From the NCBI GenBank assembly GCA_016235085.1, contig JACRMA010000137.1, forward strand, positions 11,106 to 75,105: 64,000 bases of DNA, written 5' to 3'. Shown in pieces: positions 5,771-43,615 of this stretch. Under the pieces are notes generated by a model. The model searched no databases and was not told the DNA's origin. It saw only the letters and a program-made list of their open reading frames with translations. How positions within the stretch are numbered: position 1 is the first letter of the stretch; the number at the start of each line of letters is the position of its first letter. The position numbers and the translations under genes are program-made. The stretch comes from Candidatus Zixiibacteriota bacterium (GTDB taxonomy: Bacteria > Zixibacteria > MSB-5A5 > WJJR01).

Positions 5771-5976
5771 TTGTGGACCTCGATGATAGGGGAGACTTGG
5801 AGAAATCGATTACATCGAACGGCATTCCCCTATATAGGAGAACCGGCATGCCTCGGGCAAGTGCTTGTCGATTGTGCCAACGATGATCCCTCTGTCTTTG
5901 CGGATAAGCCAGGATGAAGGAGGGCGATCCGCCGCGGCGGATCGCCTTCCCACTCGTGTCCGATTAACGAAGACTT

Positions 5977-23568: not shown

Positions 23569-24027
23569 CTACCGGATCAGAGTCATTTTGCGCAAGTCAG
23601 TGTGGCCGTCGGACTCAAGCAGGCAGAAGTAGGTGCCGGTTTGGACCACTGCACCGTTGTCGTCGGTCCCATCCCATGCCAGTGTCATCGTTCCGCCTTC
23701 GTTGCCGGCAAATGTGCGCACCGCCCGTCCTTGATTATCCTCGACCCTCACGATCCAATTTGATCCGCGTTTTACCGTGAACGCGATCACCGTTTGAGTC
23801 GAGAAAGGGTTGGGCATATTTTGAAACAGTCCGAACCGATCCGCATGCGCTTGAGCGACTGGTTTGTCTGGTGCCGAGTGTTGTTCCATTGATTCCGTCC
23901 ACTCTGGCTTTCCGGCTAAAGGATCGGATCCCGCAAAGCACCGATCCTTCGGCCTGGGAAGCATGCCTTGCTGAAGGGTGATACCCGCGTTTCGAGGTAT
24001 CGGTGAACTTTCTTCCCCCACGGCCAC
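23569..24027 (-). pseudogene. Orphan T9SS C-terminal sorting domain (Por_Secre_tail-like) ORF with no signal peptide or cargo domain; likely the remnant of a T9SS substrate gene
   Basis: The C-terminal ~80 aa, LFQNMPNPFSTQTVIAFTV...GTYFCLLESDGHTDLRKMTLIR, match the T9SS CTD pattern (N.PNPF...GxY). The N-terminal 70 aa have no signal peptide. Confidence 0.45.
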
Positions 24028-25966: not shown

Positions 25967-28102
25967 CTATATGGAGATGAGATACTTTATCTTCGCAGCA
26001 AACACGCGGTGTTGGGGGTGATACCTGTTATCCTCACGAGTTTGCCAATCGTTGAAGGCTAGATAGATCCAGCTCCTTGGTGCAAAGTTGTACGAGCATG
26101 TCAGGCCGATCCGGAAGGACAACACCCCCTCGGTTTGGGTAACAGGGATTTCAGTATATAGGCCGGCGTTCATACCCTCTCGGATGGCGCAGCTTGCACC
26201 CACGCGGGAACGCCAAGTGATCTCTTCCGCGCGCCCGCGCGGATCACGTTCAACCCAAAGAGAGCCGTCAAACTCCAGTGATAATGGCTGTGACACCCGC
26301 CACGCCGAATACCAGTCGCCGTATTCACTCCGGGCGAAGAACTCGCGAAGATAATTGAACCCGAAACTGCTGTAGCATGACACGCTGAACCATGCCCTGC
26401 GTGACATGTCAGAAGAGAGGGAGAAACCCCACGCCCGCGGGTTGTAGTCACCGGTGGGTTCATACTCGCGACCAAGCTGCAGTGTCGCGGTGGCGCCCCA
26501 ATTGTTGCGAAACGAAGCTTCCACCTGAACCGCGTAGCTGTGCGAGTAGTGAGATTCGCCGAACTCGCGACTTGCTTCAGCGGCAAAGTATGCCCCTGCG
26601 TAGGCAATTACCCCAGTGTCCCTGATGAATGTCGGTCCTGCTGAGAGAGTGAACCTGTGCAGACCCGCCCACGGGACATAACCGATCTGGGAGACATTGA
26701 ACCGGTCACCGATGATCGCTGCGTATCCCTTCAGGGAAAACGCCCTGGGATGGAAGATGAAGAATGATTTGGCCGCCCAATCAGATTGGATACCGAACTC
26801 GCTACGCCCGATCTGCCCAGTGAGTTGGAAAGTACGTGTGGAAACGGTGCCATCCATGGATAGCACCGTGTTATCGAGTGAGTCGGTCAGTTTCCCGGCC
26901 GCAAGGATCGCGCCCGTGATCTGTGGGGCAAACTGATGTCCCCAACGGGCGACCCCGAAGGTTGCGCGCGGCTCGAATGCGGGGCCAATGAAACTTTGAT
27001 AATTCGCACTACCTGTGGCGGCGGCAAACGCCGCCAATTCGTCCCGGCCAAACTTGACCGTGGTTCTCAGACCAGCGTGGACCGGCACTTCCGTGCCATC
27101 GGGGAGTTTCCTTCCCACATTTCGTGAGTAAAACATCTCGAGCATCCCGGCCATTGCCCCGCCGGTGGATCTGAAGAACTCCTTGCCCTCGACAAAGAAC
27201 GACCGCTTCTCGGTAAAATACCGGTCATACCTGGACAAGTTTAGAGCATACGGATCTGCCTCGATCTGGGAGTAGTCGGGATTAAACGTCGATTGAAGCC
27301 GCCACGAGGAAGAGATGTTCCAGTTGATATCTGCCGCAGGGCGCAACGTTCTTGAGATGCCGCGGGTTCCTTTCTCCGTGCGAACGAATGCTTGCGGGTA
27401 GAGTTCCACGCGGTTGGCCCTCGCCGCGGGTCTGAGCTCGGTCAGATCCGCGAATCCCGAGACGCACAGTCCCTCGTTGATCCTGACGGGCACAGCATAT
27501 GACAACTCGCCGTTGACGGGGATTGCGCGTTCAATATTGAAACCCCAGGTGTCACCGCCACGAGGGTACCGGAGACTCGACCAGGGAATCCGCATTTCGA
27601 CCGAGTAACCGGTGGAGTCGCAGACTGCGGCAGACTGAAACACCGCATCCCAATCCGGATTGTGTTCTCGCCCGTCGGCTGAGACGACCTCATCTGCCTG
27701 AACGCTCGCGCAGCTAACCGTGAATCGGAATGCGTTACGCCGGTCACGATACGTGTCGAGGTAAACACTCACATAGTCTCCGTCCTTCCCGCCGCGAGGA
27801 CCGGGACGCCGGTCGGGCGACCGTCCGGGTGTGCCACAGCGAAACGCAAAGTAGATTCCGTCGGCTGCCTGTAGTACATAGGCGATACTCGGCTCAGATG
27901 AAGGCCTGCCTTCATTCGGCTGAAGTTGTGTGAAACTCGAAATCGAGTCGGCGGTTCGCCATCCATCCTCAAGCACTCCATCGATGATCGGCGGGACTGA
28001 TGTCCATACGACCGAAAGCCCACCAGCCCACGCGCGCCCCTGCAGAGAGATTCCGAGCGCGAGCATGAGAGCCACGATCCTAATCCGGGATTTTGAGGGC
28101 AT
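25967..28102 (-). CDS. DUF5916-family outer-membrane protein with an N-terminal CBM9-like domain and a C-terminal beta-barrel
   Basis: Signal peptide MPSKSRIRIVALMLALGISLQGRAWA; architecture and motifs as in Bacteroidota DUF5916 hydrolase-like OMPs. Last gene of the putative peptide operon. Confidence 0.55.
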   Translation of the reverse strand: MPSKSRIRIVALMLALGISLQGRAWAGGLSVVWTSVPPIIDGVLEDGWRTADSISSFTQLQPNEGRPSSEPSIAYVLQAADGIYFAFRCGTPGRSPDRRPGPRGGKDGDYVSVYLDTYRDRRNAFRFTVSCASVQADEVVSADGREHNPDWDAVFQSAAVCDSTGYSVEMRIPWSSLRYPRGGDTWGFNIERAIPVNGELSYAVPVRINEGLCVSGFADLTELRPAARANRVELYPQAFVRTEKGTRGISRTLRPAADINWNISSSWRLQSTFNPDYSQIEADPYALNLSRYDRYFTEKRSFFVEGKEFFRSTGGAMAGMLEMFYSRNVGRKLPDGTEVPVHAGLRTTVKFGRDELAAFAAATGSANYQSFIGPAFEPRATFGVARWGHQFAPQITGAILAAGKLTDSLDNTVLSMDGTVSTRTFQLTGQIGRSEFGIQSDWAAKSFFIFHPRAFSLKGYAAIIGDRFNVSQIGYVPWAGLHRFTLSAGPTFIRDTGVIAYAGAYFAAEASREFGESHYSHSYAVQVEASFRNNWGATATLQLGREYEPTGDYNPRAWGFSLSSDMSRRAWFSVSCYSSFGFNYLREFFARSEYGDWYSAWRVSQPLSLEFDGSLWVERDPRGRAEEITWRSRVGASCAIREGMNAGLYTEIPVTQTEGVLSFRIGLTCSYNFAPRSWIYLAFNDWQTREDNRYHPQHRVFAAKIKYLISI

Positions 28103-28637
28103 TGGATAAATCCTCCCAAAAGGCCGCTTGGTCCTGTGCTGTGAGCCGAGGCGGATCGGCCCAGAGCACATTCCCGGTCGAGGTGACCAAGAGCTTGAGT
28201 GGTGTCACTCGAAACGCCATGCTGTCCGTCAATCCGAACGTCGTATCGAGGTACGTTTCAACCGGAATCGGGACTTTTGTCTCCCATCTCCAGAATTCTG
28301 ATTGGGAAGGGCTCATTCCAATACTGTACACCGCAACGGGGGTCCGGTGGGCAACCTGTCCCCACAAAGCCCGCTCCTCCAGGCAGGGGGGACAGTCCGA
28401 CGGGGAGAACACGATCAGGAGGCTCCGCGACTTACGGGATATAAGTTCTTGAAGAGACGTAACTCGTCCCGATCGATCCGTGACGGAGACTGCGGGAACT
28501 GACTGCCTTGACAGGTAGTCATTAACGCTCTGAAGCCGTGAATGGGCGTGCTCGTGACTACTCATGAGTCTCCATGCCAGTAGCCCATTCAGGCCCACTA
28601 GCAGAAGGATGACGATCCTGTACCCGAGTGTGGTCAT
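28080..28637 (-). CDS. TlpA-like thiol-disulfide oxidoreductase (thioredoxin fold, membrane-anchored)
   Basis: N-terminal TM anchor and CxxC active site (SPSDCPPCLEE). Confidence 0.7.
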   Translation of the reverse strand: MTTLGYRIVILLLVGLNGLLAWRLMSSHEHAHSRLQSVNDYLSRQSVPAVSVTDRSGRVTSLQELISRKSRSLLIVFSPSDCPPCLEERALWGQVAHRTPVAVYSIGMSPSQSEFWRWETKVPIPVETYLDTTFGLTDSMAFRVTPLKLLVTSTGNVLWADPPRLTAQDQAAFWEDLSNALKIPD

Positions 28638-29833
28638 CGGCTTATGGCCCCAGTCAGGTGGGCCTTCAGAAGCCGGTCACCCGCAGCTGTCAAGAAGTAG
28701 ATATGGCCAGCACTATCAGCGCCAACCGGCCAGGCGTCGGAGGCAACTGTTGGTCCCAAAGCGGTTCCAGCTATGGAGAACACATCGATCAAGAAGGGTT
28801 TGTCTGTTTCCGCAACTCTGTCGTTCGCGAGCGTTGCTCGAAGCAGGTGGTCATCGCCGAAGCAGACAATTTTAATTGGACGAGTCCAGGATTCATGGAA
28901 TCCTGTCGGGACGACTTCGCGCTGGGATAGTGGCGATCTCAGTGCACGTGGAGAGACAAACCACGCGGCCGGGCCGCCAAATGCTCGGCGTTCCTGACCG
29001 GCACTGTCCCAGACATGAATTTCGGGATCGATGCTAAACGCCACAAACGCATAGCCCTTGCGATCGACATCGAGTACCGCCCTCACACCGGTCCAGAGAT
29101 TTCGCGCCAAAGCCGACGCCGGCGTGTACGCGAACGACTGCAGGCGAACTCCTGCCATCGAGTACACATTACAGTTGTGGCCGGCGTTAAGCGCTGTGCT
29201 GCGATCCAGGCGTAGATTCGCGCAGAGCAAGTTGCCATCCGGCGTCAGCCTCATCTCCGACGGGGCATCTTCATCATCTCCCAGGAGAAACGAACTTCTG
29301 AAGTTGCCGTCAGGCCCCATCACGATAACCCTGCGGGAACCGACGTCACTAACCAGGAGGCTGCCATCATGGCCAAAAGCCAGGGCGACCGGCGTGTTTA
29401 CTTCGTCTTGTTTTCGACCCTGCCGGACCACCGTCCGAATCGCAACTTCACCAACTGACGCCCCAACTGCCGGTCCGCCTTGCTCTCTGGCCCGGATCGG
29501 ATCACTGTGCTCAACCACTCGAAGGTACCTTGATCCATCGGGTCTCTCTATAACCTCCGTGGAGTCGGACCATGTAAACACAGTCTTCGCCGTGTGTGAA
29601 AGCGCCGTTGTCATAGCTCCGGCGGCAAGGTCATACGTGCGAACGTCATTGAATTCCGGATCGATGTAGGCCATTCGCGCACCGTCAGGGCTCACTGCGC
29701 AGAAACTCCAGTCGGTCGAGGCGTGACGACCCGTGACGCGCAGCGCCGCCGGAGTCTGAAATGCCGTATCAACTACGAATGCGCTGTCAAAAGGCGAGAT
29801 GGCGATTGCGGCCGCCAAGACTGTCATCATCAT
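28634..29833 (-). CDS. Secreted NHL-repeat 6-bladed beta-propeller protein
   Basis: NHL-like repeats (GHDGSLLVSDVGSRRVIVMGPDGNFRSSF); start at MMMTVLAAAIAIS (signal peptide) with RBS aggaga 8 nt upstream. Confidence 0.6.
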   Translation of the reverse strand: MMMTVLAAAIAISPFDSAFVVDTAFQTPAALRVTGRHASTDWSFCAVSPDGARMAYIDPEFNDVRTYDLAAGAMTTALSHTAKTVFTWSDSTEVIERPDGSRYLRVVEHSDPIRAREQGGPAVGASVGEVAIRTVVRQGRKQDEVNTPVALAFGHDGSLLVSDVGSRRVIVMGPDGNFRSSFLLGDDEDAPSEMRLTPDGNLLCANLRLDRSTALNAGHNCNVYSMAGVRLQSFAYTPASALARNLWTGVRAVLDVDRKGYAFVAFSIDPEIHVWDSAGQERRAFGGPAAWFVSPRALRSPLSQREVVPTGFHESWTRPIKIVCFGDDHLLRATLANDRVAETDKPFLIDVFSIAGTALGPTVASDAWPVGADSAGHIYFLTAAGDRLLKAHLTGAISR

Positions 29834-29952
29834 GACCGTTTTCTCCTGTGTCCTTTGATGCGGGCCCTGGTTCTGGCGCGGCCGCTCCCCGGCGCCGAGG
29901 AACGGCCCGCCGTAATCCACCCGGTATCTGTCTTTGGTATCCTTGTGACCGG

Positions 29953-30165
29953 CTACTGCTGCGGAGGTACCCACTCGCACGTGCACTCGCCGATCATCCT
30001 CGGGCAACGACACCCCGTGATTTGGCCATCCCTATTCCGAATGGGCTCACCAGCCGAATACAAGACAGGTGCTGCCGAAACCGTCGTAGACAGCAACACA
30101 AAGCCATCAACGATCGCCAGTCCGAGCATTGCTGCGACTATTAACAGTATGCGCGCCTTTTTCAT
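29953..30165 (-). CDS. Small secreted cysteine-rich peptide precursor (~70 aa; mature ~39 aa with 4 Cys in a CxC-x7-CxC arrangement)
   Basis: MKKARILLIVAAMLGLAIVDGFVLLSTTVSA signal, then APVLYSAGEPIRNRDGQITGCRCPRMIGECTCEWVPPQQ. Strong RBS aaggaggtg 10-13 nt upstream; first gene of a minus-strand operon with the NHL, TlpA and DUF5916 genes. Confidence 0.45.
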   Translation of the reverse strand: MKKARILLIVAAMLGLAIVDGFVLLSTTVSAAPVLYSAGEPIRNRDGQITGCRCPRMIGECTCEWVPPQQ

Positions 30166-30363
30166 CATCAGCCACTCACCTCCTTTCAACGTTGCATTGA
30201 CTCCGGTGCTCATTTATCGCGATCGTGCGACATCGCACACCCTGGGACGCCCTAGCAAGAGACGTGCCGCTCCCGTACGATCCGCGAGTCGACAGGGACG
30301 TGGCTACAAGATCGTGAGTAGCATGGAGTTGCTTATCTTAGTCCGGCTTCGGGTGCCGGGTGC

Positions 30364-30373
30364 GGGGGGGGGG
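30364..30373. repeat. Homopolymeric G10 tract (C10 on the coding strand of the flanking operons) in the intergenic region ~200 bp upstream of the Cys-peptide operon
   Basis: Read directly: tgcggggggggggacc. Confidence 0.8.
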
Positions 30374-30762: not shown

Positions 30763-33700
30763 CTAGAACGCAAACCGCCACTCTCCCTGCGGGGCCGGCC
30801 CGCTGCCGCTGAGGTAGGCCAGCAGGTAGACCAGATCCACGGGGTTGACGGCGCCGTCATTGTTCACGTCGCCGCAATAGGTATCCGGATAGATCTGATT
30901 GCCCGAAAAGAGCCAACAGGCGTCGGCGAGATTAACGCATCCGTCGTCGTTGACATCGCCCCGCGCGTATCCCGCCCAGCGTGCCGCGCGTTTGGCGACT
31001 TCGACACCAAGGGCCTCGATAGTCGCGACGTCGTTGGATATTGCGGGGACGGCGAACATTGCCTGCACCTCGTTATAAGTACCGTTGGCCGGCAGGATGA
31101 AACCTTTGTTGGTGAGGAATGCCATCCGATCATCTGGGGTACCAGCCACTCCCTGGGGCCCTTCACAGTACTCGCGACTCGACCAGAGGTTGGCGTTATC
31201 CCACGTTAACCCCGCGATGTCTGCTTCGAACCACAGGTCCCACCAGTAACCCCACCAGTTGCACACGGAGATCTTGTGAGGCGAATTGGTAGCCGGTGCT
31301 ATTCCGCAGTAGGACGAGGGCTGGCTTGGGTCAAACATCCCATACGCAAAACGAGGTGACAGGGCATCCCAGATCGCATAGCCATCGAAACTGTCGGAAA
31401 TCAGACCGACGTTTGTCATAGGATTGTTAGCAACGTCCCAATCCATGTATGTCCCTGCCCTGAGTTCCTTGGCGAGTGAATCCCTGTTCTTGATTCGCCA
31501 CGAGATCAGTTTGAAATCACCATACATTGGATCGTTCGCACCAACTTCAGTCTGCGTTACGAATGTATTGATCGGCTGCACATTGGTGAAACCATATGGC
31601 AGGGTCGTGTCGACATAGTTCGAGCGAACCCACTCCCCCAGGATTTCAACAGGAATCCCGGGGCAGCCTCCCTGGCGGCGATAACCCATATGGACACTAC
31701 TGCCGCCATCGAATCCACAAGTACTATCCGAACGACGAAGCTCGGGACGAAACAGGCCCTCCATATTGTAGAAGTCAGCCGCAACCTGACCACGACCGCT
31801 ATTGAACTTTTCTCCCGACAAAACGAGGCTACCATCGTACAGATTGGCACTGTATCCGTCATCCGCACCCCAAACCAGCGCTCCAATATTGCCGTCTCCC
31901 AGGGAACCATGATTGAACACCTTCTCGCTATTGGGTGCGCCAAGGGTGTTCCAGTTAAGCACGGTACTGGCTTCAGGGCAGCCCCCATTATACACGACGT
32001 GGAGCGTCGGATACATGTACGAATACGTTAGGTCTTCGGGGTAAAGATCAGGATCGTTGTTGGGGAATTCGATGTACTCCTCATCGGTCCCGCGCCCAAG
32101 TCCGGTGCCATCATACATCCACGAGACGTTGGTAGATTGCCCAGGTGGAAGAGGATTCGCGCTGAATGAAACAGCGGACGTGCGCAGCACATCGTCGGTC
32201 CCTGCCGTGATCGACCCCGTGGCGCGGGCCTTTAGACGCGACTTGTTCGCGGTTTCAATAGCCTTGTCGAAAGCGGTCAAATCGTCTTCCCCACGCGCGC
32301 CCACACCGGCGAGGATGGCCCGCTTCGAGAGCCTGTCGTCCTTGAACCGGGTCACGTAATCGCTGCCGAGATGGCGATCCACGTAAGCGGCGGCATACCG
32401 GCGTTGAATGTCCGTGTAGCTCCCTGCCGATGGCGGCGGATCCCAGAGAACCGGATTCTGGAAATTGAGACTGACACAGCCGTCGTTGCTGAATACGCCC
32501 GCCTCTGTGTGCGTCTGCCCGGATGGGGTACCCAACGGTACCTGGATTTCAGTCGAGTAGACATACTGGTGGAGGAACGGCCTGAGCTGCTGATGGAAGC
32601 GCCATGCCGTCACGACTCCATAACCGCTTGGTTCGAGTACGGCACTGCGGGCGCTCACCACGGCATAATCTTCTCCGTTTGCGAAATTGTGCGCGATCGC
32701 CGTGCCATTCACGATACCAGTGAATTGGCGCCGCCACTCCAGTGACTGGTCAGTGGTGTTGAGCAGGTACCACCACCCCAGCCGGTCGCCGGCGAAGAGA
32801 TACTTGTCACAGGAAAGAGTGACATTGATAGGGACGGCGGCGACACCCTGCACGGAGAAATTGTGAATGGCTGTTCCCCCGAATTTGTCCACCATGAGAA
32901 TTCCGGCGGATGGATCGTCTTGGGGTATGTAGAGGAAGTTTGGACCGATGGTCGGCGCTGCGTAGAGCGTCGGGCCCTCGGCCATGCGCCACCGGATCGC
33001 CGAGGGATCCAGAGTTGGCCCCGGACCGGCGAGTGAAACGTCGATCGCGTAACGGTGACCTCCAGAGGCCGCACTCGGTGCGTCGTTATAATAGGTCGCG
33101 CCGTAGAGAATCGCGCCCTCGACAGAAACTCCGCCGGGCCAGCCCTCGAGTGTGGCAGCCGCATCTTTGAAGTTCCAATTCACGGCGCCGGTGGCGGCGT
33201 TGATCGAATAAAGCGATCCGTCGCCTAGACTTCCAAAGGTCGCCGTCCCCACATAAAGGTTGGTGCCATCGAACGATGGTGACATCAAACTGCCACGATC
33301 GAGGGCGATCGGGTTGGTTCCCCAGCCCGAGTAGAGAAATCCGGTCCGTGCGTCCAAGGCGTACAGCCAACCGTGATTGGAGCTCGTTGTCATCTCGGTA
33401 CCGATTACGACAATGCTGTCCGTGCCGACACGATAGACCGCCGCGGCACCGAATCGATTCCGGGTCAGTAGGGAACCGTGAGCCGCCGCCGCGAGCCCTG
33501 GACCGCTCAGGTCATTCGACCAATACACAGTCGAGAGCGTCGTGTCCCAGCACGATATCGAATTCGCGGTACCACCGGTAATGAAGGCGCGATTTCCCTC
33601 CACTGACACGTTGCACCGTACCTGGCCGCTAGTGTAGGGAAACACGCCAACGCGATTGCCAGGGGTTCCGGTGGCCAGGTCGAACGAGTTAACTTCGTTA

Positions 33701-35364
33701 TCAGACGCGACATAGACCTTGCCGCCGGCAATGACCGGACTCGTGAAACTGGACAACTTGGGCAGGAACTTCGACCACTCGGCCCGAACCTCACACGGGT
33801 TCCCGACCGTCATCCCGCTCGCCCCTGTCCTTTGATAATCATGCATCCAGGTGTTCCAGTCATCGGCATGGGCCGAAGTACAGGCACTTGGAATCTCAAC
33901 GACCCTCTCCTTGCAGATATAGGCGTCGATGTATGCCTCGTCGTCGTTCCCCGAGTACTCGCCGCCGTACAACCAGCTTCCCGAAACATTGAACATCGTG
34001 TGCGGATCGGTGGTGCAGGACCCGTATGATCGTGTGCGTGTATACAGCGCATACCGATGGGCGGGTCCATTTGGCACGGAAAGCGCGACAAACAAATCTT
34101 GCGACAGTCCACCGTTGAGATTGCCCCAGATCACATCCGGGATTGGCACATTGTTGGTCAATGGCGGGTTCACCAGACTGGCGTACGGCACCGTCACCGA
34201 GTAGAGCAACGCCCCCGGATTTGTCGTCAGGCCACATGACGCTCCGGATGCGGCTCCAAAGATTTCAACCAAGACGTCGGGCGCTCCAGTGTAGGGCATT
34301 CCCATGAATGCGATTTGTTTGAGCGTGTCCAGTCCGAGCGATGCGAATCGCGTGGCCATCTTTTGGCGTGCACCGGAAAGGCTGGGGAGCGTATACGCAA
34401 AAAGCTCGGGATCGGTTACCGGATTTGCCACACCACGCCCGACCCCATACCACCATTGCCAGCCGCATACACCCGGCGCACAAGCGGTGGCGGGATCATT
34501 GGGTGTGTACCCTTCGGAGTACAGCCGCAAATGATATGGCCCCATGAGATCATTGACCCAGTCATAGAGCCCAGCGCCATCGTGGAGGTAATTGTGGCAG
34601 GGCTGTGCCGGCGGTGGCGCAGGTATCGATCCCGCACCGTCGGTTAATACCTGAGCGATTCCGGGCTCCCAGCTTCCGGACAGATAGACAGCGGCGAAAT
34701 AGGGGCCGGTCACACAGCACTCAACAACGAACGGGAGTTTGATCAGATAATTCACGCCGGCCGTGGAACCACCGTTGAGCGTCACCTGGTAGACTGGTCC
34801 GGCACACTTGACGCCGCCCGGTATGGGACAGCCGGGATTCGTCAAGTCGGCGTCGAATGCCACCGGCTGAAGATTGAAAGTGAATGGGTTGGGTTGCTCG
34901 GATGCGGGACGTTTATTGACCTCAATGTTGATGGCTGTGGCATTGAACGTGTATGCCGGCGTGCAGGCAGCGCCCCATGAATAGGGCAGCGTACCAGATG
35001 GGTCCTGAAGGCTGAAATACGTCTCGCCGCCGGCAAAGGAGAGTGTAACGCGATTCATCTGCGGTCCCATCCAATCGCCAATGCAAAACGAGCCGGGTAG
35101 CGCCAGCGGTGTTCCGGCTTGCGCAGTTGTGAGGGGCGTGTTTTCGAGGAGGGTCGGCCGCAGGTTGCCGGGAGGTGCGTTACGGACTAATTGGATGACA
35201 CCATCTTTGGACGGTGGAGCCGCTGGCGCAATGACCGGCGCATTTACCAACGTCAGAACTGCAACCGCGATCGCAAAGTCCCTGGATACTCGCACGCGTA
35301 CCTCCGGATGTCGCTTACGGCAGTTTTCGGAACGGATGTATAACCAGAACAGGGAGCCGATCAC
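30763..35364 (-). CDS. Giant (1533 aa) secreted surface protein with PQQ/BamB-like beta-propeller repeats and a C-terminal dockerin-like double Ca-binding module
   Basis: Repeats such as LYALDARTGFLYSGWG / LYSINAATGAVNWNF. C-terminus GDVNDDGCVNLADACWLF...CGDVNNDGAVNPVDLVYLLAYL is a dockerin-type DxNxDGxxNxxD pair. Confidence 0.6.
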   Translation of the reverse strand: MIGSLFWLYIRSENCRKRHPEVRVRVSRDFAIAVAVLTLVNAPVIAPAAPPSKDGVIQLVRNAPPGNLRPTLLENTPLTTAQAGTPLALPGSFCIGDWMGPQMNRVTLSFAGGETYFSLQDPSGTLPYSWGAACTPAYTFNATAINIEVNKRPASEQPNPFTFNLQPVAFDADLTNPGCPIPGGVKCAGPVYQVTLNGGSTAGVNYLIKLPFVVECCVTGPYFAAVYLSGSWEPGIAQVLTDGAGSIPAPPPAQPCHNYLHDGAGLYDWVNDLMGPYHLRLYSEGYTPNDPATACAPGVCGWQWWYGVGRGVANPVTDPELFAYTLPSLSGARQKMATRFASLGLDTLKQIAFMGMPYTGAPDVLVEIFGAASGASCGLTTNPGALLYSVTVPYASLVNPPLTNNVPIPDVIWGNLNGGLSQDLFVALSVPNGPAHRYALYTRTRSYGSCTTDPHTMFNVSGSWLYGGEYSGNDDEAYIDAYICKERVVEIPSACTSAHADDWNTWMHDYQRTGASGMTVGNPCEVRAEWSKFLPKLSSFTSPVIAGGKVYVASDNEVNSFDLATGTPGNRVGVFPYTSGQVRCNVSVEGNRAFITGGTANSISCWDTTLSTVYWSNDLSGPGLAAAAHGSLLTRNRFGAAAVYRVGTDSIVVIGTEMTTSSNHGWLYALDARTGFLYSGWGTNPIALDRGSLMSPSFDGTNLYVGTATFGSLGDGSLYSINAATGAVNWNFKDAAATLEGWPGGVSVEGAILYGATYYNDAPSAASGGHRYAIDVSLAGPGPTLDPSAIRWRMAEGPTLYAAPTIGPNFLYIPQDDPSAGILMVDKFGGTAIHNFSVQGVAAVPINVTLSCDKYLFAGDRLGWWYLLNTTDQSLEWRRQFTGIVNGTAIAHNFANGEDYAVVSARSAVLEPSGYGVVTAWRFHQQLRPFLHQYVYSTEIQVPLGTPSGQTHTEAGVFSNDGCVSLNFQNPVLWDPPPSAGSYTDIQRRYAAAYVDRHLGSDYVTRFKDDRLSKRAILAGVGARGEDDLTAFDKAIETANKSRLKARATGSITAGTDDVLRTSAVSFSANPLPPGQSTNVSWMYDGTGLGRGTDEEYIEFPNNDPDLYPEDLTYSYMYPTLHVVYNGGCPEASTVLNWNTLGAPNSEKVFNHGSLGDGNIGALVWGADDGYSANLYDGSLVLSGEKFNSGRGQVAADFYNMEGLFRPELRRSDSTCGFDGGSSVHMGYRRQGGCPGIPVEILGEWVRSNYVDTTLPYGFTNVQPINTFVTQTEVGANDPMYGDFKLISWRIKNRDSLAKELRAGTYMDWDVANNPMTNVGLISDSFDGYAIWDALSPRFAYGMFDPSQPSSYCGIAPATNSPHKISVCNWWGYWWDLWFEADIAGLTWDNANLWSSREYCEGPQGVAGTPDDRMAFLTNKGFILPANGTYNEVQAMFAVPAISNDVATIEALGVEVAKRAARWAGYARGDVNDDGCVNLADACWLFSGNQIYPDTYCGDVNNDGAVNPVDLVYLLAYLSGSGPAPQGEWRFAF

Positions 35365-35516
35365 ACCTCCGGCAACAAAACCCTGAGATTATAAGGTACA
35401 AGAAAAGGGCTGAATGTCAAGATCGACAGAGAAGTTCTTCTGGCGCACATCGGCGCTAGAGGGATGCATATTCCTGGTACGAAACGCCAAAGTCGGAACG
35501 CTCCGGCGTTGTGTGC

Positions 35517-38500
35517 TCACGGCTCGCAGGGAGCCGTGCCGCCTCTGAAGATGTAGTTGATCAGTATGACGACATCGAGCAAGTCGGTCCGGCCGTCGCA
35601 ATTCATGTCGGTCGGTTCAAAGGGCGGGAAGGTGCTGCCGTTGCGGTAGAGCATATCGATCAGGCGCACTAGATAGATCACGTCGTAATCGGGCGAGAGA
35701 ATCACTCCGGAGTTCCAATTATCGGCCTGGAATCGCGGCCATGGACGCGCCTTTCGCGTGAACGGTGTGCCCAGATCCCACAGCGCCACACTGGTACCGG
35801 TCGATTGCACCGTGACCATGTCTGCCTGCGCGTCACCATCGACGTCTCCCACGATCGGGGCCGACATGATGCTGGAGGAACCAATTCCAAACGTGAGAGG
35901 ATATCCCGGCACAAAGGTGCCATCCGGATTCAGTGCCCAAATCTGGTCGGGGCCGAAGAGCAGCTCACCGATTCGAAGAATGATTTCCGGCTGTTGATCA
36001 TTGTCGATATCCGCGAGAATGACCGCTGATGCTGACCCGGGCAATGGCGTAAAGAGCCCGTTGGTCGAGTCGGACAATAGCGGCACGCCGTTGGCGTGGT
36101 ACGCATAGAGGAAGCCGTCGCCAAGCGAATACGGCGCCAGAAACAATTCCGGTACTCTGTCGCCATCGACATCGCCGGCAGTGAGCGAATACAGGATATA
36201 TTTGTCCATCGTTTGCGGGATCGTTTGTGGCCATCCCGCCAACGAGGATCCGTTCGGCTCGATGATGTTGAGGTTGAAATTTCCCGCAGCGGCGTCGGTA
36301 TAGATGTACGCGATCTCCCTGGTGCCGTCATTGTCAAAGTCGCCAATCGCCAGACCGTGCGTTGAGTGGTGACTCCGAACTTCTACGGAGGCGTTTCCAT
36401 GGTAGGGCAAGCCAGTGCGTCCATCGAAGATGAAGATTCCATCGGCGGCAATTACCAGCTCCGGACGGCCATCACCGTCGAGGTCGCAGATGCTTTCGCG
36501 CGGGACGGAATAGTTGAACGTGGTCGCACATGGAACAAAGCCGAAACTGTGCGTTGAGAGCGGGCTGTACGGCGTGCCGTCCTCGTGCCAGGCGTTAATT
36601 ATGCCCGCGCTGTCGATTGCGACAATCTCCAGCGGGCCTTCTGCATCAAGATCGCCGATTCCGGGTACGGTCACGCCAAAGACATGACTACGGCCACTGA
36701 ACGGTTGGGGCCAGCCCGCATACTGCTCCCCGATGAAGGCGTACACGTACATTGAATCGGGTGAAGCGACAATGATTTCATCCTTGCCGTCGCTGTCCAG
36801 ATCCGCGACGGCCGGCGGTGTCTGAAATCTTGCCAGCGTATCACGCGGCCAGCCGGGGTAACTGGTTCCGTTTGCCGATAGTACCCAGAGTCCGCGCGTG
36901 GTTGGACAGATGATCTCGTCTGTGCCGTTACCATCAATGTCGGCGGTGGTGGTGGCGAATCCGATTGAGGCCGGCAGTCTCACTGGCCAGCCGGTGTGGA
37001 ATACGGACTCCACGGTGACCGCGACAGAGTCGCGTGTCACTCCTGACGCGGTCACCAGCGTCAAGCGGAGCCAGTAATTCCCCGATGGCAGCAGATCCAC
37101 TTCCCAGATTCCCAGCGTGTCGTCCCACACCGGACGCGAAGACTGGCTGATCGCGCGCATCGTCATCGCCGGAGCCGGTCCCAACGCTTCCAAACGGTAG
37201 CTCTCAAAATCCGGCGCGATGGCAGTTCCCTTCACCATTGCCAGCAAGTGGACGTGCTGACCGCTGGCCGGTGACGTTAGTTTCGCGATCGGCGCTTGCG
37301 CGAGATTGACCGGCATGTCGAACACGGCATCGGGTCCGGCGTCGAGCCGTACCATGTATGGACCGTTCAAGGTGCTGGTATTCCAAGTAGCGAGGGTGCC
37401 GCCGGAATTGGGCGTCGAGGACGTCGCAATTGTGCTCCACGACGCTGAGGCCGGGGAGTGTCCGGGCGCGATTCTTACGGAGTAAGTTGTAAAGGCGCTT
37501 CCACCCGCGTACCCGGTGATCGGGACCAATCCGCTGAGCCATTCATTTGTCTGAGGCGAGGTGATTTCAACGAAGATTCTGGGGAGACCCGCGACGGCGC
37601 GCGCGAGATTGATTCGACCCCACCCGGTGTAGCGGTCGAATCCGGGCAGATGTGCACCGGTTCCATACGGGTCCAGAATGTCATCGGCCGTGGATGTCAG
37701 GATCTGGCGGACACGCGCGGTCGAAAGCCCCGGCGCAATTGACAATAGAGCCGCCGCCGCGCCGGTCACGTGCGGTGCCGCCATCGATGTTCCGGAGGCG
37801 ATGTAATACCGGTCATTGATGATGTGCACGCCCGGTTCCGCACCAGAGGCATACAGATCGGTTCCCACGGCGCGCAATGAGAGAATGTCCTGACCGGGTG
37901 CGGCGACGTCAATGGAGTCGTTGAACGTGGAAAACGTCGCAAGACGGTCATCGGCGGTCGACGCGCCAACCCCAATCGTGACGGTGTACGCACTCGGATA
38001 GAAGACCGTGCTGTCGCCGGAATTCCCCATCGAGGCGACCAGCACCACGCCGTGGTCCGAGGCGTACTTCAGCGCGTCCTCCAACGCCCGCGACGGATAG
38101 GCGCCGCCCCAGCTCATGTTGACCACTCGGGCGCCGCGCAACACAGCGTAGTAGACGGCCTGAGAAGTGACGGAGAAGTACGCATTGGGGAATACCTTGA
38201 TGGCGAAGACACGCGCCGAGTCCGCCACGCCGGCGATCCCGATGCCGTTGTTCACCTCTGCCGCGACCGTCCCCGCCACGTGGGTGCCGTGTCCGATCTG
38301 GTCGCTAACGTCGTTATCACCGGCTAATGTGGTTGGTGACGCACTCACGTCGCCGGAAAAATCCCAGCCGTAGACGTCATCGACAAACCCGTTATGATCG
38401 TCGTCGATTCCGTTTGCCGGTATCTCGCCGTCGTTGGTGTACAAACGGCCGGTGATATCCTCGTGGTCTGTCTCGATTCCGGTGTCAATGATCCCGACCG

Positions 38501-39095
38501 GCACCTTTGCCTTTGGACCGGCGTCGTCATACGAAGCGCGGAATCGGACATCGGCTCCCGGCGTGCCCGTAAGGTTTGCCAGCGTGTCGTTGTGCTCCCC
38601 CGCGACACGCAAAACCGACCAATACGGTTGGCCGGAGTTTTCGAGATCCCACTGACGTGAATACAGGACATCGCTGGGTGGCGCATGCAATTCGAACAGC
38701 CGGTCCACCTCGGCCCACTCGACCCAGGGGAGCGCCTGCAAGCGCTTCACGAACTCCTCCGCCGATACGCCGGCATCGGGCTGGACAAGATACGTGCGGT
38801 TGGCCGGGTTCTCGCTCTCCGTGACGGCGGCCGTCGGCCACAGCGCCCGTGCATTGCGGGCTCCGGCTGCGGCAGCCCACTGGTGGACCCGTCCGGCGGA
38901 TTTGTCTGTCCCGAAATCGCCGGGGCCAAGATATCCCTGCCGTACCTTGACGATGACACTGCCTGAGTATGCCGGACTTGCAGGTCTGTATGCTGGAGGC
39001 CGGCTGGCGTCGCATGAGTGTTGTACGCTGGCCAGCGCCGGTCGGCGTCGCTTTCCGCGGGGAATGGGCCCGGACATGAGACGTCTCATGTCCAT
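35517..39095 (-). CDS. S8 subtilisin-like serine protease (1192 aa) with FG-GAP/VCBS-like repeats and a C-terminal dockerin-like module ending GGTAPCEP
   Basis: Catalytic triad motifs DTGI..DH, HGTHVAGTVAA and GTSMAAPHVTGAAA. Repeated DxDGDG..EI segments; C-terminus TDMNCDGRTDLLDVVILINYIFRGGTAPCEP. Confidence 0.75.
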   Translation of the reverse strand: MDMRRLMSGPIPRGKRRRPALASVQHSCDASRPPAYRPASPAYSGSVIVKVRQGYLGPGDFGTDKSAGRVHQWAAAAGARNARALWPTAAVTESENPANRTYLVQPDAGVSAEEFVKRLQALPWVEWAEVDRLFELHAPPSDVLYSRQWDLENSGQPYWSVLRVAGEHNDTLANLTGTPGADVRFRASYDDAGPKAKVPVGIIDTGIETDHEDITGRLYTNDGEIPANGIDDDHNGFVDDVYGWDFSGDVSASPTTLAGDNDVSDQIGHGTHVAGTVAAEVNNGIGIAGVADSARVFAIKVFPNAYFSVTSQAVYYAVLRGARVVNMSWGGAYPSRALEDALKYASDHGVVLVASMGNSGDSTVFYPSAYTVTIGVGASTADDRLATFSTFNDSIDVAAPGQDILSLRAVGTDLYASGAEPGVHIINDRYYIASGTSMAAPHVTGAAAALLSIAPGLSTARVRQILTSTADDILDPYGTGAHLPGFDRYTGWGRINLARAVAGLPRIFVEITSPQTNEWLSGLVPITGYAGGSAFTTYSVRIAPGHSPASASWSTIATSSTPNSGGTLATWNTSTLNGPYMVRLDAGPDAVFDMPVNLAQAPIAKLTSPASGQHVHLLAMVKGTAIAPDFESYRLEALGPAPAMTMRAISQSSRPVWDDTLGIWEVDLLPSGNYWLRLTLVTASGVTRDSVAVTVESVFHTGWPVRLPASIGFATTTADIDGNGTDEIICPTTRGLWVLSANGTSYPGWPRDTLARFQTPPAVADLDSDGKDEIIVASPDSMYVYAFIGEQYAGWPQPFSGRSHVFGVTVPGIGDLDAEGPLEIVAIDSAGIINAWHEDGTPYSPLSTHSFGFVPCATTFNYSVPRESICDLDGDGRPELVIAADGIFIFDGRTGLPYHGNASVEVRSHHSTHGLAIGDFDNDGTREIAYIYTDAAAGNFNLNIIEPNGSSLAGWPQTIPQTMDKYILYSLTAGDVDGDRVPELFLAPYSLGDGFLYAYHANGVPLLSDSTNGLFTPLPGSASAVILADIDNDQQPEIILRIGELLFGPDQIWALNPDGTFVPGYPLTFGIGSSSIMSAPIVGDVDGDAQADMVTVQSTGTSVALWDLGTPFTRKARPWPRFQADNWNSGVILSPDYDVIYLVRLIDMLYRNGSTFPPFEPTDMNCDGRTDLLDVVILINYIFRGGTAPCEP

Positions 39096-39104
39096 CGGTA
39101 TGCT

Positions 39105-41177
39105 TTAACCTGCGCATGGGTTGCAGGGGCCTGTCCCCCCCGCAAACACGAAATCGATCAGCGCAATGACGTCAAACACATCGTACAGCTGGTCGCAATT
39201 GAAATCCCCACGATGCATATGTGGCGGACAATCGGCGTCGGTCGGTGGGGGGGGTGCTCCGGCGAACACGCCATCGATCGCGGCGATGACATCGAAAACA
39301 TCGAATATGTCGTCGCCCGTGATGTCGCCGTGTTTGCTGCAAATGCAGGCATCGTTGACCGTGATGGAAACCTGGTCCGTATCGGCCAGCGAACCATCGC
39401 TAGCGATGAACGATACCTGGTAGGTTCCCTGCTGAGTGATGTCGGAGACAAACACAAAAGTGCCACTCCCGTTACCGGCATCGGTAAACGACGCATTCGT
39501 CAGCGATGAAGCTGAGAGAGTCGGGATCGTGAAGTTCGAATCGACCGCATGAACGGCAATCCGGAGAGTGTCCAGTTCGGTAACAGTCTGAGAGCCCGGA
39601 GTGATCAGAACCGGTGGCAGGGCGACCGCCAGCGCCTGCAAGGTCGCGCGGGCATTAATCCGGCCCCATCCATGATACATGTCCCAACCAAGCGTGTCCT
39701 CGGCCGGCCTGCCGACGAGATCTTCGGCGGCCTTCTGAATGATGTCCTGGACCTGCGCCGGTGTGAAGGCGGGCCGTAGTGCTCTTAGCAATCCGGCCAG
39801 ACCGGAAACATGGGGCGTAGCCATCGATGTGCCGCACTTGTAATCGTAGCTTCCGGATTCAACAGGAACGGTTGACCACACCCAGTCGCCCGGGGCGGAG
39901 ACATCGATGGCCGGTCCGTAATTTGACCCCGAAGTACTGGAGAAGCAGAAAGGGAGCGCCCGGTAGTCATGCGAGTCGGTTGCGCCGACCGCGATGACGT
40001 TGGGGAGGGCTGAGGGGTAATGAGGATCACCGGAGTTATCGTTTCCCATGGCGGCGCACACAGTCACTCCCGCCGTCACGGCAAAGTTGATGGCTGTGGC
40101 TTCCACTCCCGAATTCTGATACGATCCCAGCGACAGGTTGATCACGTCCGCACCATTGTTGGCGGCATAGTAGATACCACCGGCCACCGCGTCGGCGGTT
40201 CCGGACCCGCTGGCTCCGAGGACCTTGACGGCCATGAGGCGGCACTTCCAATTCATCCCAGCTACACCGATCCCGTTGTTCGTGAGTGCACCGACGATTC
40301 CCGCCACATGGGAGCCGTGCGAATGATCATCATCGGTCATATAGTTGCCATTGTTGAAATTCCAGCCTTTGATGTCGCCTGGGTATCCGTTGTGATCGGT
40401 GTCAAACTCTCCTTCCGTCTCGTTGACGTTGACCCAGAGCTTGTCTGCCAGGTCGGGATGATCCCAATCGATGCCGGTGTCGACGATCGCGATGACGACA
40501 TTGGAATCCCCGGTCGTGTACGCCCACGCACCTTCCATGTCGATGTCTGCACCGGCGAAACCCGGATCGGCGGGTGGCTGGCTGCCGGTGTTGCGCAATG
40601 GATACTGGTGGGTCAGATAGTACAAGTCATTGGGCGTTATGTCCGCTTCGCAGATTCGCACGACGGCATCAAATTCAATTGAGACGACGTCCGGCAATAC
40701 CTCGAGACGCTGTTTGAGTGCATCGGGATCGGTCCCCAGTGGAACGGGAACCACAACGAAGTCCTCGAGGTGGCTGGCGCGTGCTAGAGGCGCAAGCCGG
40801 TGTGACGGAGCGAGGGGGGGAAAGACCTGTTTGATGTTGCTGACTCCGGCCTCGGCGAGTACCCGATCGAACCCCATGCGCCCGGTGTTGCCCATTGTGA
40901 TCCGGCGCGCATCGCCGGAGGTCGGCGCCAGTTTCACGATGATCCGCGAGCGATCGAGATCATCGCGTGGGGCGGCAGCCGCGGAGACCGGCATCAATTG
41001 TCCCGCAACGGTAGCCATAATGATGACCATCGCGGATGTAACGCCAGAAGATGTGTGACTTGATCCTCGCCAGCGCATGATGTGTGTTGGCCTTGTGTGC
41101 TTCCCGTGCCGTCCAGTCGCGACAAATGCAAGGAGTTCCTTCCGATTCCTGGTCAGCCTCGTTAGCAAGGATTGCAT
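39105..41177 (-). CDS. S8 subtilisin-like serine protease (690 aa) with a C-terminal dockerin-like module ending GPCNPCAG
   Basis: DTGIDWDHPDL, HGSHVAGIVGA and GTSMATPHVSGLAGL. C-terminus GDITGDDIFDVFDVIAAIDGVFAGAPPPPTDADCP..GDFNCDQLYDVFDVIALIDFVFAGGTGPCNPCAG. Confidence 0.8.
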   Translation of the reverse strand: MQSLLTRLTRNRKELLAFVATGRHGKHTRPTHIMRWRGSSHTSSGVTSAMVIIMATVAGQLMPVSAAAAPRDDLDRSRIIVKLAPTSGDARRITMGNTGRMGFDRVLAEAGVSNIKQVFPPLAPSHRLAPLARASHLEDFVVVPVPLGTDPDALKQRLEVLPDVVSIEFDAVVRICEADITPNDLYYLTHQYPLRNTGSQPPADPGFAGADIDMEGAWAYTTGDSNVVIAIVDTGIDWDHPDLADKLWVNVNETEGEFDTDHNGYPGDIKGWNFNNGNYMTDDDHSHGSHVAGIVGALTNNGIGVAGMNWKCRLMAVKVLGASGSGTADAVAGGIYYAANNGADVINLSLGSYQNSGVEATAINFAVTAGVTVCAAMGNDNSGDPHYPSALPNVIAVGATDSHDYRALPFCFSSTSGSNYGPAIDVSAPGDWVWSTVPVESGSYDYKCGTSMATPHVSGLAGLLRALRPAFTPAQVQDIIQKAAEDLVGRPAEDTLGWDMYHGWGRINARATLQALAVALPPVLITPGSQTVTELDTLRIAVHAVDSNFTIPTLSASSLTNASFTDAGNGSGTFVFVSDITQQGTYQVSFIASDGSLADTDQVSITVNDACICSKHGDITGDDIFDVFDVIAAIDGVFAGAPPPPTDADCPPHMHRGDFNCDQLYDVFDVIALIDFVFAGGTGPCNPCAG

Positions 41178-43323: not shown

Positions 43324-43615
43324 TGTGCACTCCTGTTTCGGATTTGGATGGCGCTACGGGAGGGTGAGGGACACCGATGCGTCGGTCCAAATCGTGACCT
43401 GAACGTAAAAAAGGCGCCGCCATTTTGGCGGCGGACACTAGACCCAATATACCCGCACTTCGGTCCTTGTCAAGCGGTGAACTTCAAGGTATCCAACGAA
43501 TTGCCGGGACTCCCCGGCGCTTGGATGTCAAGGTCACGATCGCGGTTCAGCGCAGCGTTCCTGCCTGTGTCAACGATAGTGGTTGAGACGACAGCCTTGC
43601 TGGACCTGAGACAAT

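Follow-up and report, generated by a model that had tools for sequence, protein, structure and literature searches.

A candidate periplasmic maturation cassette for small Cys-rich peptides, built on a split thioredoxin–NHL propeller pair

Relation to described thioredoxin–propeller and Cys-peptide systems

SOQ1, a protein of the plant thylakoid lumen, combines a TlpA-like thioredoxin domain and an NHL propeller in a stable unit whose redox motif lies where the two domains meet, and this unit undergoes disulfide exchange with a small beta domain (PMC6107167; bioRxiv 10.1101/2021.03.16.435614; 10.1101/2024.11.01.621559). The pairing of these two modules is conserved across bacteria, humans (NHLRC2, linked to FINCA disease) and plants (SOQ1), and its substrates are hardly known. 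Here, we analyzed a four-gene cassette in which the two modules are encoded beside a small Cys-rich peptide. The cassette lies at 25967–30213 of a 64,000-nt stretch of contig JACRMA010000137.1 (hereafter the window), from the metagenome-assembled genome GCA_016235085.1 of the candidate division Zixibacteria. Its four co-directional open reading frames (ORFs), all on the minus strand, encode a peptide precursor, a propeller, a thioredoxin and an outer-membrane protein (OMP); the propeller protein is 100% identical to NCBI HZB43_13375.

Like SOQ1 and the NHLRC2 proteins of animals and bacteria, the cassette brings together a thioredoxin, an NHL propeller and a small Cys-containing beta domain on the oxidising side of the membrane. 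It stands outside that family in two respects: its modules are three separate genes rather than a single chain, and its thioredoxin has DCPxC in place of CC(I/V)NC, with no specific sequence closeness. The partner of SOQ1 is an nDsbD-like Ig fold of ~100 aa, whereas that of the cassette is a predicted three-stranded sheet of ~38 aa with four Cys and a cleavable Sec leader; furthermore, the cassette peptide varies widely and is tied to export components. The thioredoxin shares with the TlpA/CcmG(DsbE)/ResA/StoA/Etrx group the features by which that group is recognised, namely the thioredoxin fold with CxxC, the N-terminal anchor, the acidic residue at +3 and the cis-Pro loop. However, it has Asp where the group usually has Trp before the CxxC and an invariant Asn in its transmembrane (TM) helix, and it appears to be dedicated to the propeller and the peptide instead of cytochrome c, ScoI/CoxB or Msr.

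The mau cluster, which encodes methylamine dehydrogenase, also combines a small Cys-rich subunit (MauA), a propeller (MauB) and a thioredoxin-like protein (MauD). MauB is seven-bladed, and MauA, of ~130 aa with 12 Cys, carries the Trp-derived cofactor tryptophan tryptophylquinone (TTQ), which needs MauG. The likeness consists in a small, disulfide-rich, signal-bearing polypeptide encoded together with a propeller and a TlpA-like protein. In contrast to mau, the cassette has a six-bladed NHL propeller, a peptide of ~38 aa without a conserved Trp, and no MauG- or MauE-like neighbours, and it does not belong to that system. A role of the peptide as subunit of a TTQ-type or cysteine tryptophylquinone-type cofactor was rejected because no aromatic residue is conserved in it.

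The heat-stable enterotoxins STa and STb of Escherichia coli have Sec signals, fold in the periplasm in a DsbA-dependent manner and are released through TolC/MacAB. The cassette resembles them in its Sec pre-peptide, its probable periplasmic disulfides and its separate outer-membrane (OM) step, and MacB-type permeases follow one type of its peptides (type 2, below). However, STa and STb use the general Dsb machinery, with neither a dedicated thioredoxin nor a propeller, and have no sequence similarity to the cassette peptides. Certain bacteriocin loci possess thiol-disulfide oxidoreductases of their own (BdbA/BdbB for sublancin, PedC for pediocin and BlpG for Blp), and thus likewise join a small secreted Cys peptide to a thioredoxin-family helper; unlike the cassette, they occur in monoderm bacteria, with double-glycine leaders, C39 ABC exporters and immunity genes, and no propeller partner. 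Set beside these systems, the cassette represents, in our view, a hitherto undescribed variant of the pathways dedicated to maturing and exporting Cys peptides, one that is built on a split thioredoxin–NHL pair.

The peptide family and its conserved cassette

We judge the chances to be about even that the cassette is an operon dedicated to maturing a small secreted, Cys-stabilised mini-protein in the periplasm and releasing it. This interpretation is based on the even Cys count of the peptides, their conserved cleavage site, the export partners and the strict coupling of propeller and thioredoxin. A dedicated pathway of Cys chemistry and export had already been suggested by the first-pass annotation of the window, and with an even Cys count in all peptides and an envelope partner at the loci it is still the best reading.

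The small ORF is a real gene and the founder of an undescribed family. As listed, the ORF (29953–30213) reaches too far upstream: its true start codon is the ATG at 30168 (MMKKARILL…), preceded by a Shine-Dalgarno (SD) sequence (Table 1). Similar sites (AAGGAGGTGA-like) before the peptide gene are near-perfect in nearly all lineages examined and weaker in L017. A small ORF occupies the same position in 17 loci (peptide hidden Markov model (HMM), E 1e-20 to 1e-29). The mature peptide is under purifying selection, with a pN/pS (ratio of nonsynonymous to synonymous change) of 0.23–0.29 at moderate divergence, whereas constraint on the leader is looser. Searched with the family profile, a set of 1.84 billion representative proteins yielded 24 clusters (E <= 1e-3), all of 54–76 aa. 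Taken together, the 17 fixed-position loci, the pN/pS values and the 24 clusters exclude a chance ORF and bear out the precursor of ~70 aa with a strong ribosome-binding site and a signal peptide that had first been proposed. When the single peptide sequence was used as the query, the query itself was the sole match; the relatives have almost no 5-mers in common, and profile searches are therefore needed to find them.

None of 30 peptides consistently matched any Pfam or NCBIfam family at E <= 1, in agreement with the earlier remark that the family was not recognisable. NVEALA, conotoxin and spider-toxin identities were rejected, each having been supported by single, insignificant matches only. 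In the literature searched, neither NVEALA nor DUF5916 (the domain of the OMP described below) was mentioned, and nothing relevant was found on the combination of propeller, TlpA and peptide.

Alignment of 30 peptides showed that G40, C53, C55, C62 and C64 are invariant and that G48, G52, P56 and G60 are conserved in at least 90% of the sequences. The family consensus is [YF]xAG…GCxCPxxxGxCxC; the aromatic residue before AG is not invariant, and the C-termini are not conserved. The spacing between the pairs, given at first as CxC-x7-CxC through a miscount, is CxC-x6-CxC in 32 of the 35 peptides of this type (type 1), of which each type-1 locus has one copy. The leader comprises residues 1–33 (30070–30168), with a long h-region, a buried Asp21 and the cleavage site VSA/A, and leaves a mature peptide of ~38 aa (29956–30069); the Ala at position −1 of this AxA-type signal-peptidase site is conserved in the alignment. 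In the AlphaFold2 (AF2) model (predicted local distance difference test (pLDDT) 83.5), a helix of residues 3–27 is followed by a three-stranded antiparallel sheet (36–44, 50–57 and 62–66), and both CxC pairs are placed on adjacent strands. Comparison of this model with the PDB revealed no structure with a similar fold.

In the near-identical strains L002 and L007, no gene of the operon has diverged as much as that for the peptide (pN 0.047, against 0.002–0.012 for the other genes), and the changes map to the loop between the CxC pairs and to the C-terminal tail.

The four-gene co-directional operon described in the first-pass annotation was confirmed, and its order of peptide, propeller, thioredoxin and OMP, with the same overlaps, is kept in about 13 lineages. 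The full order is present in the window and in L001/L008, L002/L007, L012/L013, L014/L015/L025, L016, L017, L018, L019 and L024; L004–L006 have the same order minus the thioredoxin domain, and in the type-1-like loci L034 and L042 the sequence does not extend far enough for an OMP to be seen. The junctions, said at first to be short or overlapping, are so for the last three genes: the propeller stop and thioredoxin start overlap by 4 nt (ATGA), and the 3′ end of the thioredoxin gene overlaps the likely OMP start (MPSKSRIR, 28102) by 23 nt, an overlap that recurs in L013, L014 and L017. The peptide and propeller genes, by contrast, are separated by a spacer of 119 nt with a strong GC hairpin. 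The flanking genes differ in every lineage, and the GC content ranges from 44% to 61%. The same gene order amid differing flanks indicates that the cassette is a self-contained conserved operon.

To extend the distribution, GTDB genomes and JGI metagenomes were scanned with the thioredoxin motif as the sole seed, which yielded 27 further loci; the E-values of these scans refer only to candidate stretches. In 21 of the 27, a propeller (HMM) lies immediately upstream of the thioredoxin, and leader-bearing Cys-rich ORFs adjoin the propeller–thioredoxin pair in most loci with enough flank. When the propeller alignment was used as the seed in genome and metagenome contigs, nothing was found, whereas the thioredoxin motif succeeded. 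All homologues are metagenome-derived and their taxonomic labels are sparse; the labelled sources are Zixiibacteriota, Aminicenantes, Acidobacteriota (Ca. Angelobacter) and Latescibacterota.

Several Cys patterns were found. Type 2 peptides have CxC-x4-CxxC, as in YTGNQFSDGQGHYACLCNPNNCVPC, with an N-terminal half common to the type-1 mature domain, and directly follow the thioredoxin in L021 (Ca. Angelobacter, Acidobacteriota), L032, L036, L038 and L040/L041. In L020 (Aminicenantes) and L026, the propeller gene is preceded by a peptide type with six to eight Cys, GCFCLACPPMYCYCPCPPYICTC, and L022 (Latescibacterota) encodes an 8-Cys peptide in the order thioredoxin–peptide–propeller. All 46 mature peptides, which span at least four Cys patterns, contain an even number of Cys (2, 4, 6 or 8), as would be expected if every Cys were disulfide-paired, and their net charge is about zero or negative.

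Two loci showed further arrangements. L038 carries two tandem type-2 peptide genes (5579–5869 and 5989–6324), the only paralogous precursors seen. L027 (1040–3924) has, in order, a thioredoxin, an 81-aa leader peptide with only two Cys, a DUF5128-type propeller and a 161-aa protein, an order that links the cassette to a Bacteroidota-type six-bladed propeller family.

The Cys pattern and the charge also bear on another explanation, in which the product is a thiolate metal-binding peptide (a metallochaperone or buffer) whose four Cys are kept reduced by the TlpA-like protein for Cu(I), Zn or another soft metal, with the propeller and OMP serving in delivery or efflux. With its four thiols predicted to point to the same side of a hairpin, the peptide could offer a tetrathiolate site, and a neutral-to-acidic charge suits metal binding better than membrane attack. 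TlpA-family reductases prepare the Cys ligands of ScoI and CoxB for metallation, as summarised in PMC6107167 (its reference 40). In addition, a distant propeller relative (P0005, DUF5128) occurs at L003:6587–9753 together with a MerR regulator, a small OM barrel and a periplasmic HMA (CxxC) protein, beside multihaem cytochromes, which hints at a metal-related cousin of the system; identity, however, is only 28% over 39% of the propeller, and L003 has no thioredoxin. An even Cys number in every variant fits disulfides and is not required by metal sites. In the peptide alignment, neither His nor Met nor any other residue that might serve as an auxiliary ligand is conserved; aromatic residues and Pro abound in several variants (such as GCFCLACPPMYCYCPCPPYICTC), which sets them apart from peptides of the metallothionein type; and no metal-responsive regulator or P-type ATPase is conserved beside the cassette, whose flanks differ throughout. 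We therefore consider a metal-binding role unlikely.

Partner proteins and the proposed maturation route

The second gene encodes the propeller. Its AF2 model (pLDDT 73.5, predicted template-modelling score (pTM) 0.76) has six blades, and its top Foldseek matches in the PDB were the NHL domains of Thin, Brat, TRIM71 and TRIM2, as well as Vgb lyase (E 7e-11 to 1e-8). Consistently, a profile of eight propeller homologues matched the NHL domains of TRIM71, TRIM2, Thin and Brat (1e-29 to 1e-14), and one canonical NHL blade (profile positions 108–153) aligned to all six TRIM71 blades (3e-29). In Pfam searches, the window propeller gave marginal matches, with NHL below the cutoff, and weak Vgb_lyase and ScyF-like matches; the NHL cutoff was exceeded by the L014 homologue (25.6 bits vs 20). 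The protein thus has both the six-bladed fold and the sequence motif of the NHL superfamily, and the original assignment stands.

That the propeller is secreted, as also suggested at first, is supported by the lipoboxes on the propellers of the type-2 loci and of L022, which come from other phyla, but not by the window protein, whose atypical N-terminus has a hydrophobic stretch of 12–15 aa without basic residues. A longer N-terminus starting at a GTG at 30013 was rejected, being not conserved, lacking a signal-like sequence and spanning the hairpin, with a stop six codons upstream in L002. An insertion of 28 aa (RPDGSRYLRVVEHSDPIRAREQGGPAVGAS…; residues ~101–132) is unique to the window propeller and has a pLDDT < 50.

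The weak Vgb_lyase and ScyF-like matches, and a radical-SAM/SPASM gene near the distant L022 cassette, would be compatible with a ribosomally synthesised and post-translationally modified peptide (RiPP) precursor that is acted on by an unrecognised enzyme, the propeller being the maturase (a PAL/Vgb-type lyase or an amidating enzyme). However, the propeller alignment contains no invariant Cys, His or Glu, its conserved residues being mostly Gly, Pro, Asp, Asn and aromatics. A catalytic Cys was rejected, given that Cys221 is kept in three close relatives and lost in L014 and L016, and so was PAL/Vgb-like catalysis, for want of an invariant His. None of the four genes matched a RiPP enzyme family, and no known enzyme of this kind recurs across the loci; the leader is of the Sec type, with an AxA site, rather than a recognition leader, and the peptide C-termini vary. 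Moreover, the first-pass picture of a RiPP-like product, in which the leader would be conserved, the core hypervariable and paralogs present, is the reverse of what we found: the Cys core is conserved, the leader is more variable and there is one copy per locus. On these grounds a RiPP pathway is extremely improbable.

The thioredoxin has the active site D-C82-P-P-C85 (28383–28394) and an invariant Glu88 three residues past the second Cys, which we take to correspond to ResA E80 and CcmG E86. Its Pro146 (TPLK), the cis-Pro candidate, is aligned to the Pro in the GAPETF segment of CcmG. CxxC is present in all 7 + 27 homologues, and a hydrophobic helix (~residues 8–24) follows basic residues in all of them, which points to a periplasmic topology. 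Profile searches matched CcmG/DsbE (6e-7), ResA (2e-5), StoA, pneumococcal Etrx and the PilB N-terminal domain; against Pfam and NCBIfam, the window protein gave weak Redoxin and DsbE matches below the curated cutoffs. The TM anchor, the DCPPC motif and the CcmG/ResA matches agree with the membrane-anchored CxxC thioredoxin named in the first annotation. Judged by sequence, the protein is a member of the extracytoplasmic reductase/isomerase clade (CcmG, ResA, StoA, Etrx and the PilB N-terminal domain), which makes a simple oxidase role unlikely and leads us to expect proofreading of non-consecutive pairings. The oxidation step envisaged earlier is doubtful on account of this clade and the Glu at +3.

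In L004–L006, from two samples, the thioredoxin domain is deleted, leaving a frameshifted 55-aa remnant (L004:3592–3759) in which both gene ends are recognisable. The deletion suggests that the thioredoxin is dispensable or replaceable in that lineage.

Membership of the reductase clade, and matches that include Etrx and the PilB N-terminal domain (an Msr fusion), would also suit a split SOQ1/NHLRC2-like redox relay, in which the Cys mini-protein is a redox subunit: electrons would pass from CcdA/DsbD to the thioredoxin and on to the mini-domain on the propeller, and this mini-domain would repair envelope proteins damaged by oxidation (to methionine sulfoxide or sulfenic acid), the co-encoded OMP perhaps among them. 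SOQ1 carries the same three modules in one chain, and its thioredoxin reduces the Cys pair of a small beta-stranded C-terminal domain with Msr activity; propeller and thioredoxin are, moreover, coupled in nearly every locus. A catalytic module would be expected to keep one Cys pair, whereas the Cys pattern varies between phyla (4, 6 or 8) and the peptide gene evolves fastest between close strains. The precursors have a conserved signal-peptidase site, the SD sequence and the hairpin suggest a large excess of peptide over its partners, and the link to a MacB pump or OM barrel favours export. Furthermore, the propeller profile matches NHLRC2 (6g7w) only at E 0.044, and the thioredoxin profile matches neither NHLRC2 nor SOQ1. 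We thus think that a redox relay is improbable.

The fourth gene encodes a DUF5916 protein, as first annotated, with Pfam scores of 65.3 bits for DUF5916 (cutoff 22.6) and 32.1 bits for CBM9_1 (cutoff 23.4). Both domains also occur in L002, L004, L007, L012 and L014, and the window protein is 41–61% identical to the fourth gene of L002, L012 and L014; no relative was found in the PDB or NCBIfam. L016, L017 and L019 have, in place of the DUF5916 protein, a barrel protein from an unrelated family, of ~430 aa with a weak DUF481 match and an N-terminal CxxC, and in four independent type-2 loci a duplicated MacB_PCD/FtsX permease of ~800 aa directly follows the peptide. An envelope-spanning partner is present throughout but is lineage-specific: a putative DUF5916 barrel, a DUF481-like barrel or a MacB/FtsX pump. 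Being replaceable by another barrel family or a MacB-type pump, the OMP is not part of the core.

The pump and the lipoprotein propellers raise the question of self-immunity. Producers of certain peptides are protected from their own product by LanI lipoproteins and by BceAB/LanFEG transporters. By analogy, the cassette peptide could be an antagonistic toxin folded by the general Dsb system, with the propeller and the pump or OMP sequestering or expelling it rather than folding it. The propellers are lipoproteins in the type-2 loci and in L022, an FtsX/MacB-type permease follows the peptide in the four loci above, divergence between close strains is concentrated in the peptide gene, and possibly phase-variable tracts lie upstream of it (see below). 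Self-immunity, however, leaves the invariant coupling of propeller and thioredoxin through a 4-nt overlap unexplained, and the peptides are neither cationic nor amphipathic; we rate it as highly unlikely.

For the maturation and release operon, we propose the following route. An abundantly translated 71-aa precursor would be exported by Sec and briefly tethered by its long leader, with its buried Asp/Asn. The ~38-aa C-terminal domain is predicted to fold into a three-stranded sheet in which Cys53 and Cys55 on strand 2 face Cys62 and Cys64 on strand 3, and a two-disulfide ladder, C53–C64 and C55–C62, appears the most likely outcome. The gene coupling and the analogy with SOQ1/NHLRC2 suggest that the thioredoxin and propeller act as one unit, the propeller as a peptide-binding platform and the thioredoxin in thiol-disulfide exchange; the thioredoxin is more likely to reduce or isomerise wrong CxC pairings than to serve as the primary oxidant. 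After cleavage at VSA/A by signal peptidase, the folded peptide may be handed to the OM barrel for release or surface display, with a MacB/FtsX pump probably taking the place of the barrel in the acidobacterial versions. Sensing, the other function considered in the first-pass annotation, is unsupported because the cassette contains no signalling domain.

Several observations weigh against this proposal. L004–L006 lack the thioredoxin domain, yet their peptide (with all four Cys), propeller and OMP are intact, and a thioredoxin of the reductase clade fits the keeping of thiols, for a metal or a redox relay, equally well as isomerisation. The window propeller has no canonical signal peptide; no peptide ORF was found in L028, L029, L030 and L037, whose flanks are limited; and no immunity gene or receptor is evident in the loci. 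The neutral-to-acidic character of the peptides sets them apart from typical cationic antimicrobial beta-hairpins, and a protegrin-like cationic beta-hairpin antimicrobial is itself unlikely with a net charge of zero or below.

If correct, the proposal would establish both a dedicated two-protein folding unit and a new family of small disulfide-stabilised proteins that are secreted by little-studied phyla (Zixibacteria, Acidobacteriota/Aminicenantes and Latescibacterota). With a substrate encoded next door, the thioredoxin–NHL mechanism would become directly testable. The peptides are compact, evolvable scaffolds (CxC-x6-CxC, CxC-x4-CxxC and the type with six to eight Cys) and could be new antagonistic or signalling molecules.

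The leaders contain a further feature. Asn, sometimes Asp or Glu, occurs at leader position 17–22 in 33–36 of the 46 peptides (~75%), in all Cys types, flanked by ~14 hydrophobic residues before and ~5 after. Polar residues are rare in the h-regions of signal peptides, and the feature is therefore constrained. The TM anchor of the thioredoxin has an Asn in the context L-x-N-x-L-L in all seven type-1 lineages and most others; the window residues are Asp21 in the leader and Asn17 (28587–28589) in the anchor. In addition, the peptide HMM weakly matches thioredoxin N-termini. Co-occurrence of leader Asn and TM Asn across lineages was 13/3/2/3, a trend that is not significant.

On the basis of these sequence features, we propose that the peptide leader and the thioredoxin anchor may make an intramembrane contact. 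In a bolder form of the maturation reading, the split thioredoxin–NHL machine would pick its own Cys-rich substrate via the buried Asn/Asp at about leader position 20, matched by the TM Asn of the thioredoxin, set the disulfide ladder and pass the substrate to a dedicated OM exit, which would amount to a previously unrecognised post-export maturation system in several phyla. We offer this form tentatively, as a possibility that is more doubtful than not. If true, it would represent a new class of leader-guided periplasmic peptide maturation and provide the first cognate substrates for the thioredoxin–NHL (NHLRC2/SOQ1-type) module. A buried Asn in a Sec leader suggests a route by which a periplasmic enzyme could select its substrate inside the membrane.

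Expression signals, borders and neighbouring genes

Table 1. Coordinates of the cassette genes and associated elements in the window
Feature	Position	Strand	Details and evidence
OMP, 711 aa from MPSKSRIR; signal peptide, N-terminal CBM9-like domain, DUF5916	25967..28102	−	Pfam
Membrane-anchored TlpA/CcmG/ResA-type thioredoxin, 185 aa	28080..28637	−	Profile and alignment
Divergent NHL-type six-bladed beta-propeller, 399 aa	28634..29833	−	AF2, Foldseek, profile
GC-rich stem-loop, ~16 bp, no U-tract	29875..29911	−	Within the 119 nt between the peptide and propeller genes
Peptide precursor gene, 71 aa + stop	29953..30168	−	ORF call, family profile, alignment, AF2 model
Invariant core motif G52-C53-x-C55-P56-xxx-G60-x-C62-x-C64 (GCRCPRMIGECTC)	29977..30015	−	Alignment
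Shine-Dalgarno sequence GGAGGTG	30177..30183	−	8 nt before the ATG at 30168; read from the sequence
Candidate sigma-54 type −24/−12 promoter GGCAC-N5-TTGC	30255..30268	−	100 nt upstream of the peptide ATG
10-nt poly-C tract, possible slipped-strand (phase-variable) element	30364..30373	−	~200 nt upstream of the peptide start

A scan for sigma-70 promoters found none on the coding strand, and a terminator scan gave nothing meaningful. The motif of the candidate sigma-54 promoter (Table 1) is also present at −103 in L008 (L008:651) and before the L020 peptide gene (L020:339); about 0.07 matches were expected in the upstream regions scanned. A sigma-54 activator gene lies downstream of the cassette in L020 and L028, and none is encoded in the window.

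In four lineages, a G/C homopolymer of 8–12 nt lies 185–400 nt upstream of the peptide gene (C10 in the window, G8 in L002/L007 and G10 in L004–L006, both at ~185 nt, and G12, at ~400 nt, in L018). The background frequency of such tracts is ~1 per 25 kb, and close relatives carry tracts of different length (G8 vs G10). These tracts suggest phase variation, and assembly error is possible too.

The 119-nt spacer after the peptide gene has a minimum free energy of −50 kcal/mol (z = −2.2). In 7 of 9 lineages, the peptide gene is directly followed by a local hairpin with a dG of −21 to −35, whose position is kept but not its sequence. The stem-loop is likely to be a transcript stabiliser or attenuator; in combination with the strong SD sequence, it suggests that more peptide is made than partner proteins. 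Rfam searches of the cassette and its homologues yielded nothing, and a riboswitch or small RNA in the long upstream region is therefore not supported.

The cassette is clearly bordered, with a convergent MmgE/PrpD gene downstream and 550 nt of non-coding sequence upstream, beyond which a dockerin-bearing protein of 1533 aa is encoded. The latter contains DUF7451, a PQQ-like propeller and the C-terminal dockerin, and belongs to a series of very large secreted proteins at 30763–43447 (minus strand), directly upstream of the cassette, which also includes three S8 subtilases, one of them with FG-GAP repeats. These large proteins are next to the cassette in the window and are not conserved there in other lineages.

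Multihaem cytochrome c genes adjoin the cassette at L004:163–1560, L016:6358–7689 and L002:4855–5256, which may reflect how common they are in these genomes. Two fluoride riboswitches (4391–4478 and 6361–6419, minus strand) lie beside the cassette in L012 (GCA_035559435.1), upstream of crcB/DUF190 and of a gene for a dynamin-like GTPase. Finally, a small ORF at 23569–24027 of the window (minus strand) encodes a FlgD_ig / type IX secretion system-like C-terminal sorting domain.

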